Assembly (NCBI GenBank): GCA_965227695.1
Contig: OZ245760.1
Location: 88,580-152,579, forward strand
Length of the DNA stretch: 64,000 nucleotides
Direction of reading: 5' to 3'
Source of the DNA: Gammaproteobacteria bacterium
GTDB lineage: Bacteria; Pseudomonadota; Gammaproteobacteria; UBA4575
The position numbers and the translations under genes are program-made. The notes under the pieces are model-generated. The model was not told where the DNA came from. It saw nothing but the letters and a program-made list of their open reading frames with translations, and made no database searches. This document shows, one piece after another, positions 177 to 8,766 of the stretch. Each line of letters begins with the position of its first letter. Positions within the stretch are counted from its first letter, which is position 1.

Positions 177-1334
177 ATGTCCCCACGAAAAATACTTTTA
201 TTCCTGGCACAATCTGCGACCGTTGGCATCATTGCCGCAGCCGCATTGATTTTCATCATGCCCAGCACATGGCTGCAGATCGACAACAAGGAAAAAGACA
301 AAACAAAAACATCTGCCAGTGCCTTGCCTTCGGGGCCTTTTTCTTATGCTGATGCAGTATCAAAAGCCGCGCCCGCGGTTGTCAATATTTATACTAAAAA
401 ACTGGCAGCAGGCCCGCGTCGATTAACTGCCACCAACCCCCAGCTCGAGCGCCTGCTCAAAAACATATACGGTGAACAGCTGGATCGCACCGTCACAAGT
501 CTTGGCTCTGGAGTGATTGTGACACCACAGGGCCATATCCTGACGAATAATCACGTGATTGAAAATGCAGAAGAAATAGAAGTTTTTTTGGACGATGGAA
601 GACAATTGACTGCAGCCGTGGTTGGCGCAGACCCGGAGACTGATTTGGCCGTGCTGAAAATACAGGCTAACAACGTACCCAGTGTCAGCTTTCCGGCATC
701 CACCTCGCAGGCAGTGGGAGATGTGGTATTGGCGATTGGCAATCCTTTTGGCCTCGGCCAAACCGTTTCACAGGGAATCATCAGCGCAACAGGGCGAAAC
801 CAGCTGGGCATTAACGTTTTTGAAAATTATATCCAGACCGACGCCGCCATTAACCCGGGTAATTCAGGAGGGGCGCTGATCAATGCCAGGGGCGAATTGA
901 TTGGCATTAACACGATTACTTCATCAAAAAATGGCAATTCCGTCGGGATTGGCTTCGCAATTCCTATTGGACTTGCCCAACAAGTAATGTCTCACATGAT
1001 TGAATATGGCCGCGTGCTTCGTGGCTGGATCGGTATTCGCGTGCAAAATATTTCACCCCAGTTATCAGAATCATTTGGCCTGTCTGATGTCGGAGGGGTA
1101 CTGGTCTCCGGCATTGTTCGCGACGGGCCGGCTCACGCTGCCGGTCTGTATCCCGGAGACATCATCATTTCAATGAACAATCAAGCCATCAGTGAAGAAA
1201 AACAGGTATTATATGAAGTCATCCGCGTGCATCCGCAACAACCCCTTTATATCAAAGGCATCCGTCAGGGAAACATCAGGGAATGGAAAGTGGAGGTTGG
1301 CCAACGCCCGATTTATGGCTCTTTAACCTATTGA
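177..1334 (+). CDS. degS: Periplasmic serine endoprotease, DegS-like (trypsin-like domain plus one PDZ, N-terminal membrane anchor)
   Basis: GNSGGAL Ser-protease motif, His/Asp/Ser triad context, hydrophobic N-terminal helix, C-terminal PDZ-like region; 385 aa fits DegS rather than DegP. Confidence 0.8.
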   Translation: MSPRKILLFLAQSATVGIIAAAALIFIMPSTWLQIDNKEKDKTKTSASALPSGPFSYADAVSKAAPAVVNIYTKKLAAGPRRLTATNPQLERLLKNIYGEQLDRTVTSLGSGVIVTPQGHILTNNHVIENAEEIEVFLDDGRQLTAAVVGADPETDLAVLKIQANNVPSVSFPASTSQAVGDVVLAIGNPFGLGQTVSQGIISATGRNQLGINVFENYIQTDAAINPGNSGGALINARGELIGINTITSSKNGNSVGIGFAIPIGLAQQVMSHMIEYGRVLRGWIGIRVQNISPQLSESFGLSDVGGVLVSGIVRDGPAHAAGLYPGDIIISMNNQAISEEKQVLYEVIRVHPQQPLYIKGIRQGNIREWKVEVGQRPIYGSLTY

Positions 1335-1473
1335 TTATCATAAATCATTACACTTGCCGAATATATTGTGAACAATATTTATCGATATTTGTCAGAACGA
1401 ACTAATTTATCAATTTGATGCCCAATTTGAACCTTACCATATACTATTGGTTTTAATAGTCAGACCCTAATTT

Positions 1474-2010
1474 GTGAACATAAAGATACTAAACCTTGCA
1501 GTCATATTTTTAACCTGCACTCTGTTTTATACGCCTGTCAGCGCAGCCAAGCCACCAGCACGGGTGATTGCTGGCTGGGTTGAAAAGATTCAGTTAGAAA
1601 ACCACCCTCATCATATCAAGGCCAAACTCGACACTGGCGCCAAAACCTCTTCTATCTACGCCACAGATATTGAAGCGTTTAAAAAAGATGGACAAAGATG
1701 GGTGAGATTCACTTTACACTTGACAGATAGCGAAGGTAAGACATTCGAGCACTTGATGGAGAAGCCTCGCTCACGAAAAGCAAATATAAAAAATCATGAT
1801 GGTGATCATGATCAGCGTTATGTTGTGGATCTGAATATTTGCTTTAATGGCAACTATTATACAACTGAATTTACACTTGCCGACCGAAGTGAATTTATTT
1901 ATGGCATTTTGCTTGGAAGGAGATTTTTAAAGCTTACCGCACTGGTAGATGCGAACAAGACTTTCCTGACCACGCCGGCATGCAAGATCGATACAGCATT
2001 GCCCCAATAA
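1474..2010 (+). CDS. Retropepsin-like aspartic protease family protein (DUF785, 'ATP-dependent zinc protease' family), secreted/lipoprotein
   Basis: Signal peptide, D-T-G-A catalytic-like motif (KLDTGAKTS), conserved partner of the next two genes. Confidence 0.6.
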   Translation: MNIKILNLAVIFLTCTLFYTPVSAAKPPARVIAGWVEKIQLENHPHHIKAKLDTGAKTSSIYATDIEAFKKDGQRWVRFTLHLTDSEGKTFEHLMEKPRSRKANIKNHDGDHDQRYVVDLNICFNGNYYTTEFTLADRSEFIYGILLGRRFLKLTALVDANKTFLTTPACKIDTALPQ

Positions 2011-2025
2011 ACCTTATTAACACTC

Positions 2026-3561
2026 ATGTACAAAGCGCCTGTGGTTTTTTGGTCCATCGTTTTTATCACGATTGGTCTTGCCATATTCTCCTACAAAAGC
2101 ATTCAGCTGGGTTTTCCGTTGGCGGCAGACAGGCACACAGAAGCGTGGACCTTGCAAGCGTGTTTAAGCTTTGATGCTAACCAGCGTAATATCAAGGCAG
2201 CCCTGGATATACCGGATATCACGCCTGGATATACGCAACTGGAAGAATATTTTATCTCAGGTAAATTTGGCCTCAACGTTAAGGACAACCAGGACAATAA
2301 AACTGCCAGCTGGGCCATAAGAAATGCCAGCGGACGGCAAACTTTATACTACAGAACAACTGTTACCCGATCCGGCTCAAATAAAACCTGGTCAACAATC
2401 CCCAGCTATCCTTCGGCTCCGGAGTTCAAAGAACCTTATGCCACTGCCGTGCGCAAAATTATCGAAGATGTACGCAGTCAGTCAGCCGACACCTATACTT
2501 TCACCTTTGAGTTAATTAATCAGCTTAAATCATCGGATGCCAGTGAAAATATTTCCCTGATACGCGGACTTGCAGAGTCTGACCAGGAAATTGCAGACCT
2601 TGTGATCAAACTGCTCTCTGTTGCCCACATCCCCACACGCAAAGCCTGGGTGATTGCATTAACTGATGGTACCAATGATGCTCAGCCAAGAGTGCTGGTG
2701 CAGGCTTTCAACGGTGATGAGTGGCTTACTTTTGATCCAAGAAGTGGCAATGAAGGAATCCCGTCAAATCATTTTGTATGGAAAGTTGGGGACTCGCCTT
2801 TTTATCAGCTCCAGAATGCCAGGAACCCAGAGTTACAGTTCTCGGTGACAAAATCGTATATTGAATTACTGGATGTGGCAAAACAAAATGCAAAGCAAAG
2901 TGGATCGATGCTTGGAGCTCTCACCCTTTCCGCGCTTCCCATACAGAGCCAGAATACTTATAGGTTATTATTAATGGTACCACTTGGAGCCTTGCTTGTA
3001 GTATTTATGCGAACTCTCATAGGAGTGCAGACATTTGGGACTTTTATGCCTATCTTAATTGCCGTGGCATTTCGTGAGACACAATTATTTTGGGGGATTA
3101 TCCTTTTTACGGGTGTAGTACTGATTGGCCTGTTATTACGTTTTTACCTGGAACATTTAAGACTTCTGCTGATACCCAGGCTTGCCGTTATTCTGGTGAT
3201 TGTTGTAATTCTCATGCTAGCCATCAGCCTGATCACCAGCCACCTTGGCGTCGACAGACTGCTCTCAGTCTCTTTATTTCCGATGGTGATTTTAGCCATG
3301 ACGATTGAGCGTATGTCTATCACCTGGGAAGAGAGCGGCCCCCAGACTGCCTTTCTACAGGGATTTGGCAGTCTGGTGGTCGCCAGTTTTGGATATTTGC
3401 TGATGACCAGTGATCATTTGTCTTATTTAATGTTCGTGTTCCCCGAATTTCTATTAATAATACTGGGTGTTTGTCTGCTGATGGGAAGATACACAGGTTA
3501 TCGTCTGACTGAGTTATTTCGTTTTCGAGCAATGACCACAGAAAGTTCACGCTCACCATGA
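2026..3561 (+). CDS. Inactive transglutaminase-like domain fused to 7TM membrane domain (UUP1-type membrane protein)
   Basis: 511 aa; N-terminal soluble domain after one TM, C-terminal about 7 hydrophobic helices; stop overlaps start of downstream ATP-grasp gene (3558/3561). Confidence 0.55.
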   Translation: MYKAPVVFWSIVFITIGLAIFSYKSIQLGFPLAADRHTEAWTLQACLSFDANQRNIKAALDIPDITPGYTQLEEYFISGKFGLNVKDNQDNKTASWAIRNASGRQTLYYRTTVTRSGSNKTWSTIPSYPSAPEFKEPYATAVRKIIEDVRSQSADTYTFTFELINQLKSSDASENISLIRGLAESDQEIADLVIKLLSVAHIPTRKAWVIALTDGTNDAQPRVLVQAFNGDEWLTFDPRSGNEGIPSNHFVWKVGDSPFYQLQNARNPELQFSVTKSYIELLDVAKQNAKQSGSMLGALTLSALPIQSQNTYRLLLMVPLGALLVVFMRTLIGVQTFGTFMPILIAVAFRETQLFWGIILFTGVVLIGLLLRFYLEHLRLLLIPRLAVILVIVVILMLAISLITSHLGVDRLLSVSLFPMVILAMTIERMSITWEESGPQTAFLQGFGSLVVASFGYLLMTSDHLSYLMFVFPEFLLIILGVCLLMGRYTGYRLTELFRFRAMTTESSRSP

Positions 3562-4514
3562 TCAGATTCGCGACCCCAAGCACTTTGCGTAAATTCGGCA
3601 TACTCGGTATCAATCAGCGTAACAGCGATTATGTGATGCGTTACAATCCCCGCCACTTATACCCGCTCGTGGATGACAAGCTCACTACAAAAAAACTTGC
3701 CTTGGATGCTGGCATTGAAGTACCGCCATTGTATTCCATCATCACAATAAACCATCAAATCAATTCACTTGAAACTCTTCTGGCAGAACATGAAGAGGTA
3801 GTCATCAAACCTGCCAATGGCAGCGGGGGCAACGGAATCCTGGTTCTGGACGGAAAGGTAGGAAAATTATATAAAACGGCAGGCGGCAACTTAATTAGCC
3901 TGAGTTCAGCGAAACATTATGTATCCAATATTTTATCAGGCATGTATAGCCTGGGAGGACACTCTGACAAAGCCTTTTTAGAGTACCGCGTCAAACCTGA
4001 TCCTGTGTTTGACTCCATTAGTTTTAAAGGCGTCCCTGATATTCGCATTATCGTCTTCAAAGGAATTCCGGTGACCGCGATGATCCGTTTACCAACAAGT
4101 AAATCTGACGGCAAAGCCAATTTGCACCAGGGCGCGATTGGTGTCGGCATCAGTCTGGCAACCGGCAAAACCACCTATGCAGTTAATGGCAACCAAATGA
4201 CAACAACCCATCCCGATACCGGACACCTTATTCACGGTCTGGAAATTCCCCAGTGGGACAAAATTCTTGGAATCGCCATCAAATGTGCAGACACGGTGGG
4301 GCTTGGGTATCTGGGAGTCGATATGGTTCTTGATCATGAACTTGGACCTCTCATGCTGGAACTAAATGCACGACCCGGATTAAATGTTCAGCTCGCAAAC
4401 CAACAGGGTCTGAAGAAAATTCTGAAGAAAATTGAAAACGTCGGCCAGTTGCCCGCAGACATAAACCAGCGAATTTCTCTATCCAAATCACTGGCACTGA
4501 CTGACTTTCAATAA
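3558..4514 (+). CDS. Alpha-L-glutamate ligase-like ATP-grasp protein (RimK-related)
   Basis: ATP-grasp fold motifs (VVIKPANGSGGNGI, GVDMVLD...ELNARPG), 318 aa, conserved trio with the two upstream genes. Confidence 0.7.
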   Translation: MIRFATPSTLRKFGILGINQRNSDYVMRYNPRHLYPLVDDKLTTKKLALDAGIEVPPLYSIITINHQINSLETLLAEHEEVVIKPANGSGGNGILVLDGKVGKLYKTAGGNLISLSSAKHYVSNILSGMYSLGGHSDKAFLEYRVKPDPVFDSISFKGVPDIRIIVFKGIPVTAMIRLPTSKSDGKANLHQGAIGVGISLATGKTTYAVNGNQMTTTHPDTGHLIHGLEIPQWDKILGIAIKCADTVGLGYLGVDMVLDHELGPLMLELNARPGLNVQLANQQGLKKILKKIENVGQLPADINQRISLSKSLALTDFQ

Positions 4515-4656: not shown

Positions 4657-5736
4657 TCATTGTTCCGCCAAGGCTTTAGTTAACGCACTGCAAAAGATTT
4701 TATTTTCTTCTTTCGAGCCTACCGTGACACGCAGGCACTGATCAAGACCAGGCTGCCGGCTCAGGTTTTTAATCAAAACTTTTTGCTTTAATAATTTTTC
4801 AAACACGTCGTCTGCAGACTGCTCAAGCAGTCGGAAAAGAATAAAATTCGCCTCGCTGGGAAATGGTTGAATACCCTTGATGGCCGACATCTGCCCAAAT
4901 AGCGAGCCGCGCATTGATCTGATGGTGTCAGCCTGTTCTGAAAATACAGAATAGTGATCAAGCGCAAACTCAACCGTCAGCTGTGTTAGCTGGTTAATAT
5001 TATAAGGTAAGCGTATTTTATTTAATTCGGCGATCAATTCTTCATTACCTGCCAGCCAGCCAAACCTCACCGCCGCCAGACCAATTTTAGATGCAGTTCT
5101 TAACAACAGCATATTATTATGATCAGCCATATCCTCAACAAAACTGTCAGCAGCAAAAGGTCCATAGGCTTCATCTATCACTACCAGACCTTGACTCTTT
5201 TCAACAATATTGAGCACATCCCGGCGCTGCCATAAATTACCCGTTGGATTATTGGGATAAGCAATAAATATTAGGGCCGGATCATGCCGCTCTATCGCCT
5301 CTGACATAGACTGCATATCCAGCTGGTAATCCTCGGTTAACGGTACTATGTGACAGTCCACGCCAACTATGCGTGCGATCATTTGGTACATTGAAAAACT
5401 CGGGCTGACAGTCATTATCGATGCACCAGGCCTGGCTACTGCGAGGACCAGCAGCTGTATCAGTTCATCGGATCCATTCCCCAGCAAAATACTAGTAGCA
5501 CCTTCCGGACCAAATTGCTTTTTTAGTTTTTTCTTAAGTACGTCCGGATCCGGAGCAGGATAACGATTGATTTGTGCACGACTTATGTGTTCGAGCCACT
5601 GATCTCTCATACTCACAGGCCAGTTGAAAGGGTTTTCCATAGCATCCAGCTTGATCATGCCGGAAGCGTCTGGCACTTCATATGTCTGCAGTGCGAAAAT
5701 CTCTGAACGCAGGCGAGCAATAATTTGCTTGGTCAT
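4657..5736 (-). CDS. hisC: Histidinol-phosphate aminotransferase
   Basis: Class II aminotransferase, PLP Lys context, N-terminal similarity to HisC; overlaps hisD stop by 4 nt. Confidence 0.85.
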   Translation of the reverse strand: MTKQIIARLRSEIFALQTYEVPDASGMIKLDAMENPFNWPVSMRDQWLEHISRAQINRYPAPDPDVLKKKLKKQFGPEGATSILLGNGSDELIQLLVLAVARPGASIMTVSPSFSMYQMIARIVGVDCHIVPLTEDYQLDMQSMSEAIERHDPALIFIAYPNNPTGNLWQRRDVLNIVEKSQGLVVIDEAYGPFAADSFVEDMADHNNMLLLRTASKIGLAAVRFGWLAGNEELIAELNKIRLPYNINQLTQLTVEFALDHYSVFSEQADTIRSMRGSLFGQMSAIKGIQPFPSEANFILFRLLEQSADDVFEKLLKQKVLIKNLSRQPGLDQCLRVTVGSKEENKIFCSALTKALAEQ

Positions 5737-7043
5737 TTTTTTACAGAACGATTGCGCAGTTCTGCCGAGCGGGCATGCGCAGTAAGACCTTCACTATGTG
5801 CCAACTGGCTTGCGACGTTACTTAATGCCGCTGCGCCTTCATGACTGCAATTTAATATGGTCATGCGTTTCTGGAAATCATACACGCCAAGCGGTGAAGA
5901 AAATCTTGCCGTTGCATTGGTTGGTAATACATGATTTGGTCCCGCGCAATAATCGCCAAAGACTTCCGGTGTATGGTGCCCCATGAATACCGCGCCCGCA
6001 TGCGCAATATGTTTCAGCAAAGTATGCGGGTCTTCCACTGCCAGCTCTAAATGCTCCGGGGCCACACCATTACTGATTACTGCAGCCTGCTCCAGGCTCT
6101 CAACTTCAATAAAGCAGCCATATGAGTTCACTGCTTGCCTGATAATGTCTGCGCGCTCCAGTGTAGGCAGTAAACGATTCATTGACATTTCTACCTCATT
6201 TAATATGTCGGCTGAGGTTGAAATTAATGTCGTGCGTGCTAACACATCGTGCTCTGCCTGTGAGAACAGATCCATCGCCAACCAGTCCGGGTTGGCCGAC
6301 TCATCACAAATCACCAGCACCTCCGAAGGTCCGGCAATCATATCAATTCCGACTTTTCCAAATACCATGCGTTTTGCAGTGGCGACATAGATATTCCCTG
6401 GCCCCACTATCTTATCTACCGCAGGGATTGTCTGGGTGCCATAAGCCAGCGCTGCAACAGCCTGTGCACCGCCAATTGTAAACATTCGATCGACCCCTGC
6501 GATGGCAGCCGCAGCAAGCACCATTGGCTGAATAGCGCCATCAGGTGCCGGTGCCACCATAATAATTTCGGATACACCCGCCACCTTTGCCGGCACTGCA
6601 TTCATCAGTACCGAGGACGGGTAAGCGGCTGTTCCGCCTGGCACATAGATACCAACACGCTCAAGGGCTGTTACCCGCTGCCCTAACAGGGACCCATATT
6701 CATCTTCGTATTCCCATGACTGCAAGCGCTGATGCTCAGCATAATCCCTGACACGTCGATGAGCCTGCTCGAGTGCAGCACGCCGGTCCGGATCTAGACT
6801 GTCCAGAGCTTGCTGTAATCCAGTGGAATTAATTTCCAATTCGCGGGCATGTTTGACCGCGATGCGGTCATACTGTTTGGTAAGTTTAACGAGCGCGGCA
6901 TCACCCTGTTCGCGCACCTGCTCAAGTATCTCACTTACCTTATCAGTCACATCTGACTGGTGCTCGCTGTGCGTCCCTAAAAAACGGGTGAAATCATTTT
7001 TAAAATTCTCATGTCGGGCATCAAAACGTTGTATTGAAAGCAT
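5733..7043 (-). CDS. hisD: Histidinol dehydrogenase (start placed at internal Met MLSIQRFDAR; ORF extends to 7133)
   Basis: HisD motifs (GPGNIYV, QAEHD, zinc-binding His residues); longer ORF would overlap aroG-like gene. Confidence 0.85.
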   Translation of the reverse strand: MLSIQRFDARHENFKNDFTRFLGTHSEHQSDVTDKVSEILEQVREQGDAALVKLTKQYDRIAVKHARELEINSTGLQQALDSLDPDRRAALEQAHRRVRDYAEHQRLQSWEYEDEYGSLLGQRVTALERVGIYVPGGTAAYPSSVLMNAVPAKVAGVSEIIMVAPAPDGAIQPMVLAAAAIAGVDRMFTIGGAQAVAALAYGTQTIPAVDKIVGPGNIYVATAKRMVFGKVGIDMIAGPSEVLVICDESANPDWLAMDLFSQAEHDVLARTTLISTSADILNEVEMSMNRLLPTLERADIIRQAVNSYGCFIEVESLEQAAVISNGVAPEHLELAVEDPHTLLKHIAHAGAVFMGHHTPEVFGDYCAGPNHVLPTNATARFSSPLGVYDFQKRMTILNCSHEGAAALSNVASQLAHSEGLTAHARSAELRNRSVKK

Positions 7044-7051
7044 CACAGTTT

Positions 7052-8113
7052 TTACTTTACCAATTGACGACGAGCCTGAACCGCCCCGGCAAATTGTTTT
7101 AGCAGAACTACCGTACTTTCCCAATCGATGCATGCATCAGTCACACTCTGTCCATACGTTTCAGCTTTACCATCGACCACATTCTGGCGACCTGCCACGA
7201 TATTACTTTCAACCATTACCCCAAAGATTCTTTTTTCGCCTGCAGAAAGCTGATTACATATATCAGCACCGACCTCGAGTTGCTTTTCGTGCTGTTTTAA
7301 GCTGTTTGCATGACTGCAATCCACCATCACGCGTGGTTCAAGGTTGGCTTTCTGCAGACTCTCACATGCGGCCTTGATACTCGCGGAGTCATAGTTAGTA
7401 TTCTGGCCTCCACGCAGAATCACATGACAGTCAGGATTGCCGGCAGTGGAAAAGATTGCCGATTTTCCTTCTTTTGTGACAGATAAGAAATGATGTGGGC
7501 GTGTCGCTGACCCAATGGCATCAACAGCGACCTGCAGACCTCCGTCCGTCGCATTTTTGAATCCAACAGGGCAAGATAGTCCTGAAGACAATTCCCGGTG
7601 CACCTGGCTTTCTGTCGTTCGCGCCCCAATCGCACCCCAGCTAACAAGATCTGCGACATATTGAGGGCTGATCAAGTCGAGATATTCGGTCCCTGCCGGC
7701 ATACCCATTGTATTCAAGTCAAGCAATAGTTCGCGAGCCAGTCTTAGGCCTTTATTTATTTCAAAGCTGTTATCCAGGTTTGGGTCGTTGATAAGACCTT
7801 TCCAGCCCACTGTTGTGCGAGGTTTTTCAAAGTACACACGCATCACGATGAGCAGATCATCCGATAGCTCGTTCCTGAGTGATAACAGACGGTTGGCATA
7901 ATCACGTGCCGCAATCGGATCATGTATAGAACATGGACCGACGACTACGAGGAGACGGTCATCTTCACCATGTAAAACTTTTTGTATTTGTTCCCTGGCC
8001 TGAAATACACAACGAGACGACGCTTCTGTGACAGGAAATTCAGTAAGCACCTGCGTGGGCGGGCTTACTTCTTTCATTTCTACAATTCGTAAATCATCAG
8101 TTTGGTATTTCAT
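7052..8113 (-). CDS. aroG: 3-deoxy-7-phosphoheptulonate (DAHP) synthase, class I (AroG/AroF type)
   Basis: Near-colinear with E. coli AroG (DDLRI...LLVVIGPCSIHD...MRVYFEKPRTTVGWKGL...GARTTESQVHRE). Confidence 0.85.
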   Translation of the reverse strand: MKYQTDDLRIVEMKEVSPPTQVLTEFPVTEASSRCVFQAREQIQKVLHGEDDRLLVVVGPCSIHDPIAARDYANRLLSLRNELSDDLLIVMRVYFEKPRTTVGWKGLINDPNLDNSFEINKGLRLARELLLDLNTMGMPAGTEYLDLISPQYVADLVSWGAIGARTTESQVHRELSSGLSCPVGFKNATDGGLQVAVDAIGSATRPHHFLSVTKEGKSAIFSTAGNPDCHVILRGGQNTNYDSASIKAACESLQKANLEPRVMVDCSHANSLKQHEKQLEVGADICNQLSAGEKRIFGVMVESNIVAGRQNVVDGKAETYGQSVTDACIDWESTVVLLKQFAGAVQARRQLVK

Positions 8114-8127
8114 CTTTATAATATTTC

Positions 8128-8766
8128 CTAGTTTACTTTTGTGATTGCATCCTGGAACTGCTCAATCACACCTTGCAGTGTTTCAAATCTGACTTTTAGC
8201 GAAGCTTTGTTTGCAACCAGACGGGAACTAACATCCGCTATATGCTCGAGAGGCTGCAGACCATTTGCGCGTAACGTACTACCAGTATCAACCAAATCAA
8301 CAATCAGGTCGGCCAGACCTGTCATTGGTGCCAGCTCCATGGAACCATACAGCTTGATAATTTCAACCTGTTTACCTTGCTGGGCAAAATGCTGTTTGGC
8401 AGAACGCACGTATTTTGTCGCGATTTTCAATCGAGTACCAGTATTTGAAAATTCAGACTTGCCGGCGACCATCAGCCTGCACTTGCAGATACCCAGATCC
8501 AGGAGTTCATAGATCCCTTCGCCCCGGGATTCCATTAGAATGTCCTTGCCAGCAATACCCAGATCGGCCGCGCCATATTGAACATAGGTCGGGACATCGG
8601 TGGCCCGAATAACGACAACGCGCACCAGCGGATTCTCGGTATCGATTAAAAGCTTTCTTGTTTTATCCAGATCTTCCAGCGGGGCCATACCCATTCGTTC
8701 CAGCAATGGTATGGTGTCTTTAAGTATACGCCCCTTGGATATGGCTAAGGTAATTTTAGTATCCAT
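8128..8766 (-). CDS. hisG: ATP phosphoribosyltransferase, short form
   Basis: 212 aa, HisG-short motifs (LAISKGRIL, DLVDTGSTL). Confidence 0.85.
   Translation of the reverse strand: MDTKITLAISKGRILKDTIPLLERMGMAPLEDLDKTRKLLIDTENPLVRVVVIRATDVPTYVQYGAADLGIAGKDILMESRGEGIYELLDLGICKCRLMVAGKSEFSNTGTRLKIATKYVRSAKQHFAQQGKQVEIIKLYGSMELAPMTGLADLIVDLVDTGSTLRANGLQPLEHIADVSSRLVANKASLKVRFETLQGVIEQFQDAITKVN

Follow-up and report, generated by a model that had tools for sequence, protein, structure and literature searches.

In Pseudomonas aeruginosa, the operon rloA-rloB-rloC (PA14_41690/41710/41730), named by Lormand et al. (2025, mBio; PMC12239564), has been linked to survival under hypo-osmotic conditions, to the formation of biofilms, to tolerance of beta-lactams and to the shape of the cell. 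It encodes a secreted retropepsin-like aspartic protease (RloA), a membrane protein combining an inactive transglutaminase domain with a seven-transmembrane (7TM) module (RloB), and an ATP-grasp protein located in the cytoplasm and 24% identical to RimK (RloC). Here, we analyzed a locus of three genes in a stretch of 64,000 nucleotides (hereafter the window; contig OZ245760.1 of assembly GCA_965227695.1, positions 88,580–152,579) from an uncultured gammaproteobacterium of the UBA4575 lineage. The three protein architectures and the A-B-C gene order were like those of P. aeruginosa, and the trio is very probably an rloABC orthologue. The locus is real and was correctly read at the domain level by the initial annotation, which had been made from the sequence without database searches. 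Its statement that the trio had no experimentally defined function is outdated, as the system was named and partly characterized in 2025 and NCBIfam models for RloA, RloA2, RloA3 and RloB exist. Publications on the rlo operon later than that of Lormand et al. (2025) were not found.

Three redundant RloA-type proteases are present in P. aeruginosa, RloA itself and two unlinked paralogues. A mutant lacking all three (ΔrloA1-3) does not grow in salt-free lysogeny broth, the catalytic aspartate being needed, and this hypo-osmotic defect is fully suppressed by deletion of either rloB or rloC. Deletion of rimB, on the other hand, did not interact genetically with the rloA mutations. The channel of the RloA dimer is basic and the protein carries a periplasm-specific disulfide; it cuts runs of at least eight glutamates in vitro, and the runs used were ribosomally encoded and thus alpha-linked. 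Residues K46, D48, R114 and R137 are needed for polyglutamate (polyGlu) cleavage, and R114 and R137 were required both in vitro and in vivo (all from PMC12239564).

Two other described systems resemble rloABC in part. RimK makes poly-alpha-L-glutamate, while RimB trims polyglutamate tails and stimulates synthesis by RimK (PMC11957791). The RimK/RimB pair (rimABK, acting on ribosomal protein S6) likewise joins a retropepsin-like endopeptidase for polyGlu to an ATP-grasp alpha-L-glutamate ligase. RimB is cytoplasmic, however, in contrast to RloA with its signal peptide and disulfide pair; no RloB-like membrane protein has been described for the rim locus, whereas here RloB is encoded between protease and ligase; and RimK shares the Mg/ATP motif and the fold with RloC but has an N-terminal domain that is not found in RloC. 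Membership of the trio in the RimK/RimB system was rejected on account of the RloA signal peptide, the membrane partner RloB and RimK scores below cutoff. The second comparison is with the poly-gamma-glutamate system of Bacillus (PgsBCA and its depolymerase), in which an amide ligase at the cytoplasmic face, a membrane component and an extracytoplasmic depolymerase handle an anionic polymer of glutamate. Its functional logic is like that of rloABC, but PgsB is a Mur-ligase-type enzyme rather than an ATP-grasp one, and the Bacillus polymer is gamma-linked, in contrast to the alpha-linked glutamate runs cut by RloA. Profile alignment (hhalign) of RloB with PgsC gave no sign of homology (probability 0.1); this was a weak test, as an approximate PgsC sequence was used.

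Identity and linkage of the three genes

The three co-directional open reading frames (ORFs) lay exactly where they had first been noted (Table 1), with a spacer of 15 nt between the first and second gene and a shared 4-nt ATGA between the second and third. Independent gene calls on the 2,725,066-bp NCBI/ENA contig returned the same three proteins, including the 178-aa product with a GTG start. The retropepsin, transglutaminase-like and ATP-grasp assignments were all supported by searches against Pfam, NCBIfam and the PDB and with Foldseek, and the window copy is a typical rloABC member without any unusual feature.

RloA matched the Pfam family PF05618 'Zn_protease' at 9.3e-37, a family that we take to be the former DUF785. 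The NCBIfam models RloA3, RloA2, RloA and RimB (the last at 1.3e-22) also matched it over its full length, all below their curated cutoffs. Among structures in the PDB, the best matches were two RloA crystal structures, 9g59 (3e-24) and 9g58 (9e-21), followed by 2pma from Legionella (4e-12). The N-terminus (MNIKILNLAVIFLTCTLFYTPVSA followed by AKPP) resembled a Sec signal peptide, with a hydrophobic segment ending in VSA/A, and the crystal-structure chains aligned to RloA only from approximately residue 31 on. RloA is thus predicted to be secreted, with cleavage after residue 24, in line with the initial annotation, which had described a secreted aspartic-protease-like protein with a DTGA motif. 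The mature protein would be basic (isoelectric point 9.06). Each chain contained a single DTG, consistent with a retropepsin homodimer to which each subunit contributes one catalytic Asp.

Conservation was computed over 69 operon-linked RloA sequences. R115 and R138 were invariant (100%), D53, G55, A56 and R101 were conserved at 98% and K51 at 88%, and the cysteine pair C123 and C170 at 92 and 71%, respectively. By position, K51, D53, R115 and R138 are the likely equivalents of K46, D48, R114 and R137 of P. aeruginosa. Signal peptide, DTGA motif, basic residues and cysteine pair are features of both proteins. In three loci (L078, L069 and L080 in our numbering) the RloA ORF was long, and it contained PF05618 alone and no further domain; the extra length arose because the most upstream start codon had been taken.

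Relatives of the locus were found by a pattern scan built from the RloB alignment, with one genome per species, and RloB relatives were confirmed at a minimum of 589 places. The closest relatives among the matches listed were metagenome-assembled genomes (MAGs) labelled Gammaproteobacteria or Thiotrichales, with at most 82% identity. Synteny was counted in the best 80 of these at least 589 loci, one per species. RloC was encoded directly downstream of RloB in 79 of the 80, the exception being a contig end, and RloA directly upstream of it in 68, in agreement with the earlier claim that the trio is conserved in many proteobacteria and with the co-occurrence of the three genes that it implied. 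Of 79 loci, 41 had a 4-nt overlap of rloB with rloC and 10 a 1-nt overlap, and in the 76 loci tallied for distance the junction fell within 15 nt, so that the two genes appear to be translationally coupled. An exhaustive HMMER search of 1.84 billion cluster representatives with RloB retrieved approximately 510 clusters (50% identity) at E ≤ 1e-30. The best 150 of these were mostly full-length proteins of about 500 aa, with a handful of shorter, apparently truncated ones and no fusions.

The near-universal synteny and the overlapping junctions argue strongly against reading the trio as a cassette, whether mobile or for anti-phage defence, or as genes without shared function that lie together by chance, a reading that we consider highly improbable. 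The genetic epistasis in P. aeruginosa (PMC12239564) points in the same direction. PADLOC defence models gave 0 matches to RloA, RloB and RloC, and the locus shows no compositional island signature, with a G+C fraction of 0.40–0.47 in the operon vs. 0.43–0.50 in the flanks. The surrounding region is core chromosome and includes his, murA, mla and rpoN genes. In favor of a cassette, the insertion between a degS-like gene and hisC occurs only in the closest relatives. Synteny, junction overlaps and the lack of PADLOC matches effectively refute a defence cassette or chance adjacency.

Two of the loci deserve separate mention. One (L035, NZ_CP194902.1) carries rloABC on a 5.30-Mb sequence named 'Methylocaldum sp. 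GT1BB plasmid unnamed', which is almost certainly a mislabelled chromosome. Another (L078, CAYWGW010000084.1) is a complete rloABC on a MAG labelled Spirochaetaceae. According to the published distribution, 96% of RloB matches are in Proteobacteria (PMC12239564), and binning contamination or horizontal transfer is therefore indicated for this locus.

Conservation of RloB and RloC

RloB matched PF14400 (2.5e-47) and PF14402 (6.8e-97), and the NCBIfam RloB model NF052267 over model positions 13–506 of 508 (2.4e-137). The protein consists of a single N-terminal transmembrane (TM) helix, a soluble domain of approximately 270 residues and a hydrophobic C-terminal half. The soluble domain was modelled by AlphaFold2 with block means of the predicted local distance difference test (pLDDT) of mostly 68–88, lower at both edges. 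A Foldseek search of the PDB with this domain returned 3isr (1.6e-9) and the periplasmic domain of TgpA (6g4h, 7.5e-4), with weaker matches to 3kd4, TglA and vasohibins. Structure 3isr, TgpA and the vasohibins have the fold in common with the RloB periplasmic domain, but they are actual or predicted Cys-His-Asp enzymes, whereas a Cys/His triad was not found in RloB: among 80 homologues, no column of residues 25–300 contained at least 20% Cys and no His was invariant. The domain thus has no catalytic triad and is regarded as catalytically dead. The initial annotation had proposed a transglutaminase-like domain joined to a 7TM module, of which the fold and the membrane module stand and catalysis does not. 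It had also suggested peptide tagging or processing, or poly-amino-acid modification, at the membrane; the general logic of ligase, membrane protein and peptidase holds, while transamidation or tagging by this domain is unlikely, given that the triad is missing.

The different parts of RloB were conserved to very different degrees. The transglutaminase-fold domain (residues 28–300) had a mean identity of 38%, with 25 of 273 columns conserved at 95% or more. The corresponding values were 65% and 64 of 182 columns for the 7TM module (residues 305–486), and 88% and 9 of 15 columns for the helix GRYTGYRLxELxRFR that follows it (residues 487–501). The domain that gives RloB its name ('inactive transglutaminase') is thus far less conserved than its 7TM module and C-terminal helix. 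Invariant residues were R329, R350, E351, T352, R372, R385, E428, R429, E435, E436 and E474 in the 7TM module and R488, R493, E496 and R499 in the helix. The position of the invariant charged residues, in the half of the protein that spans the membrane and in the helix after it, suggests that the functional core of RloB would be the membrane module together with the juxtamembrane helix. From the count of one plus seven TM helices, the C-terminal helix is predicted to be cytoplasmic. A solved homologue of RloB was not found by sequence, the sole match being a spurious one to NKG2-D (E 0.012), and a Pfam scan at E ≤ 10 returned no family besides PF14402 over the 7TM region.

The far C-terminus of RloB bears on the proposal of a dedicated protein target for RloC, either RloB or a different envelope protein, that would be polyglutamylated in the way RimK modifies RpsF, with RloA removing the tail as part of a reversible regulatory switch. 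RimK, ArgX and LysX all extend the C-terminal Glu of a protein, the apparent translational coupling of rloB and rloC suggests a complex, and Lormand et al. consider post-translationally polyglutamylated proteins among the possible substrates (PMC12239564). However, the last ten residues of RloB (502–511) were unconserved, with a mean identity of 10%, and did not end in Glu, and neither did RloA; the C-termini of both proteins are neither acidic nor conserved. A search for small precursor-peptide ORFs with an acidic tail in or beside the operon found none. With a cytoplasmic ligase and a periplasmic protease, moreover, the modified segment would still have to cross the membrane. We therefore regard a dedicated protein target as improbable.

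RloC scored 438.9 bits on the NCBIfam model TIGR02291 'alpha-L-glutamate ligase-like', above the curated cutoff of 314.2, and matched PF14397 (3.5e-88), with weaker matches to RimK, GSH-S and ATP-grasp_3. Its description as a RimK-related, alpha-L-glutamate-ligase-like ATP-grasp enzyme was thus upheld. A TM segment was not found in RloC. The AlphaFold2 model was good (pLDDT 82, predicted template modelling score 0.84), and its best Foldseek match was ArgX (3vpb, 1e-10), followed by RimK of several species (5zk6, 5zct, 4iwx and 7qys) and LysX, with PsnB, Ddl and CphA1 further down. Residues D255, E268 and N270 aligned with the RimK stretch GVDI...EVNASPGL; these three residues, K84 and a loop starting at G185 (G185-K-A-N-L-H-Q-G) were invariant in 80 RloC homologues. 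Since the Mg/ATP residues, K84 and the GKANLHQG loop are invariant, RloC should be an active enzyme.

RloC was rejected as an equivalog of RimK: it scored 53.7 vs. 143.4 on TIGR00768 and 27.1 vs. 331 on PRK10446, and only the C-terminal motif aligned. RloC residue 39 aligned with RimK residue 98, indicating that the N-terminal pre-ATP-grasp domain of RimK is absent from RloC. In its place, window positions 3558–3671 encode a conserved helical N-terminus (RloC residues 1–38). The N-terminal domain of ATP-grasp ligases generally helps acceptor binding. As RloC lacks a RimK-type N-terminal domain, it is plausible that handling of the acceptor or product is delegated to RloB.

A putative polyglutamate pathway and its alternatives

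For the specific mechanism, we tentatively favor a sequence of polyGlu synthesis by RloC, transfer or presentation by RloB and periplasmic degradation by RloA, the chances of which we consider at best evenly balanced. Cytoplasmic RloC, of the RimK/ArgX/LysX lineage, would use ATP to make alpha-linked glutamate chains, either as free poly-alpha-L-glutamate or as a polyglutamyl tail on some acceptor. Glutamate polymerization is suggested by the family and fold of RloC and by what its partner protease cuts. RloB would then take up the product and translocate it, or present it at the periplasmic face, by way of its charged 7TM module; its basic and probably cytoplasmic C-terminal helix is a candidate docking site for RloC, and its dead transglutaminase-fold domain may serve as a binding module rather than as a catalyst. 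In the periplasm, Sec-exported RloA, as a retropepsin-like dimer with a basic channel, would cut runs of eight or more glutamates; this activity, known in vitro for the P. aeruginosa protein, is expected of the window copy because K51, D53-T-G-A, R115 and R138 are conserved. Turnover of the product would keep the envelope tolerant of low osmolarity, while without the protease the RloBC product would be harmful. The last point rests on P. aeruginosa genetics, namely the suppression of the ΔrloA1-3 defect by ΔrloB or ΔrloC (PMC12239564).

The identity of the system is supported by the domain architecture of all three proteins, the RloC score above the TIGR02291 cutoff, the matches of RloA to RloA crystal structures and the A-B-C order. 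Localization is supported by the RloA signal peptide, the TM topology of RloB and the absence of a TM segment from RloC. As for catalysis, the supporting features are the DTGA motif, the basic residues and the Cys123/Cys170 pair of RloA, and the nearest folds of RloC, which are the alpha-carboxyl glutamate ligases ArgX, RimK and LysX.

Several observations weigh against this interpretation. RloA reached only 150.1 bits vs. a cutoff of 210 on its best NCBIfam model, RloA3, and 103.7 vs. 250 and 102.5 vs. 280 bits on the two other RloA-type models, while RloB reached 458.7 vs. 900 bits on NF052267. The window proteins are hence only distantly related to P. aeruginosa RloA and RloB. Since both fall below narrow cutoffs, they are family members, orthologous in architecture and context, and not proven equivalogs. 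In 12 of the 80 loci, no rloA was found within approximately 6 kb of rloBC, including by a hidden Markov model search (L027, L036, L038, L042, L043, L055, L060, L061, L063, L075, L076 and L079; the L027 sequence ends about 630 nt upstream of rloB). The genes upstream of rloBC in such loci encoded unrelated metabolic enzymes, acyl-CoA dehydrogenases or flavin adenine dinucleotide (FAD) oxidoreductases. An rloBC pair without adjacent rloA fits the situation in P. aeruginosa, which has three rloA genes but only one of them linked to the operon. The membrane part of RloB was modelled with low confidence (pLDDT 40–66), and its 7TM module resembled no known transporter in sequence and Pfam searches. 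Acceptor recognition by RloC may also differ from that by RimK, the N-terminal domain being absent. Finally, Lormand et al. call the physiological substrate unknown, and the activity and product of RloC have been demonstrated in no organism (PMC12239564).

The fold matches and the missing N-terminal domain of RloC also admit another function, in which RloC, as an amidoligase, would attach amino acids to an envelope precursor that is not a protein, for example one of peptidoglycan or a lipid-linked glycan, while RloB would be a flippase-like carrier or scaffold and RloA would trim the attached peptide; cleavage of polyGlu in vitro would then merely approximate the true substrate. The Pfam name of the RloC family is 'sugar-transfer associated ATP-grasp', D-Ala-D-Ala ligases also appeared among the RloC fold matches, and RimK's acceptor-side domain is the part that is absent. 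The P. aeruginosa mutants have phenotypes in cell shape and towards beta-lactams, and Lormand et al. bring up the homeostasis of peptidoglycan (PMC12239564), and disruption of a Shewanella gene of the same architecture led to hypervesiculation (PMC12096838). On the other hand, a polyGlu chain fits both the basic channel conserved in RloA and the strict need of this protease for at least eight consecutive glutamates, and the top fold matches of RloC are alpha-glutamate ligases that act on peptide C-termini. No glycosyltransferase or mur genes adjoined rloBC among the flanks examined; close relatives had degS and hisC there, and in other loci the neighbors that were identified encoded acyl-CoA dehydrogenases or FAD oxidoreductases. 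An amidoligase of this kind is thus unlikely.

The polyGlu pathway could also be taken one step further, to RloB and RloC forming a new type of polymer synthase-exporter. RloC would dock on the RloB helix and poly-alpha-glutamate would be fed through the 7TM module into the periplasm, a proposal that we consider doubtful. The periplasmic polyanion might, with the same reservation, act as an osmotic solute like the osmoregulated periplasmic glucans, with RloA setting its chain length and amount. Compatible with this are the strong constraint on the 7TM module and the helix, the lack of transporter likeness and the coupling of rloB to rloC. If true, this would add a new route of secretion across the membrane and give free poly-alpha-glutamate its first physiological role in Gram-negative bacteria. 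The window brings nothing to this question that was not already within reach of the work on P. aeruginosa.

Genomic setting and implications

The coordinates of the features are compiled in Table 1. Upstream of rloA and on the same strand, a DegS/AlgW-like protease of the HtrA family is encoded at 177–1334 (+), with an N-terminal TM helix, a trypsin domain and one PDZ domain; it scored below the DegS equivalog cutoff (346.7 vs. 422.95). Among the best 80 loci, degS-like upstream and hisC downstream flanks were common only to the three closest relatives (L001, L002 and L005). The intergenic region before rloA was poorly conserved among the closest relatives. Searched for sigma-70-like promoters and terminators, it gave counts no higher than shuffled sequence, and neither a credible Rfam match nor a plausible small ORF was found in it. 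As no terminator was found, read-through from the degS-like gene into rloABC is possible.

Table 1. Positions of the rloABC genes and their features in the window
Feature	Position	Strand	Details
rloA: secreted retropepsin-like aspartic endopeptidase (predicted)	1474..2010	+	178 aa, GTG start; PF05618
rloB: inner-membrane protein (predicted)	2026..3561	+	511 aa; PF14400 + PF14402; N-terminal TM helix, apparently inactive transglutaminase-fold domain, 7TM module
rloC: cytoplasmic RimK-related ATP-grasp ligase (predicted)	3558..4514	+	318 aa; TIGR02291, PF14397
RloA putative signal peptide, residues 1-24	1474..1545	+	hydrophobic N-terminus, then V-S-A
RloA putative catalytic motif D53-T54-G55-A56	1630..1641	+	sequence motif, conserved
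RloB periplasmic domain, residues 28-300	2107..2925	+	transglutaminase/papain-like fold without catalytic triad
RloB 7TM module (residues 305-486) and C-terminal helix GRYTGYRLxELxRFR (487-501)	2938..3528	+	conservation
ATGA overlap, rloB stop/rloC start	3558..3561	+	probable translational coupling
RloC putative Mg/ATP-binding motif D255...E268-x-N270	4320..4367	+	RimK alignment
Intergenic region, degS-like gene to rloA	1335..1473	+	139 nt

The window as a whole is core chromosome, with hisC, hisD, a DAHP synthase gene, hisG, murA, mlaCDEF and rpoN. An additional rloA paralogue or a rimK/rimB pair was not found within its 64 kb, unlike P. aeruginosa with its two further rloA paralogues. Downstream of the operon, a gene run hisG/DAHP synthase/hisD/hisC occupies 5733–8766 (−), in which the DAHP synthase gene (7052–8113) lies between hisD and hisG. 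The longest hisD ORF (466 aa) overlaps the DAHP synthase gene by 82 nt; its start is probably over-extended, since the Histidinol_dh domain begins only at residue 56.

Beyond the work of Lormand et al. (2025), our comparison of sequences contributes a conservation map of RloB and the absence of a RimK-type N-terminal domain from RloC. For annotation, the three genes are better called rloA, rloB and rloC than 'ATP-dependent zinc protease', 'transglutaminase' and 'alpha-L-glutamate ligase-like'. The conservation map directs mutagenesis to the invariant charged TM residues of RloB and to its GRYTGYRLxELxRFR helix, and the remaining interest of the system rests on what RloC makes and on the part that the 7TM module plays in RloB. 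The near-invariant architecture in hundreds of gammaproteobacterial species, including this uncultured lineage with a small genome, points to a general envelope function of rloABC rather than to a peculiarity of Pseudomonas.

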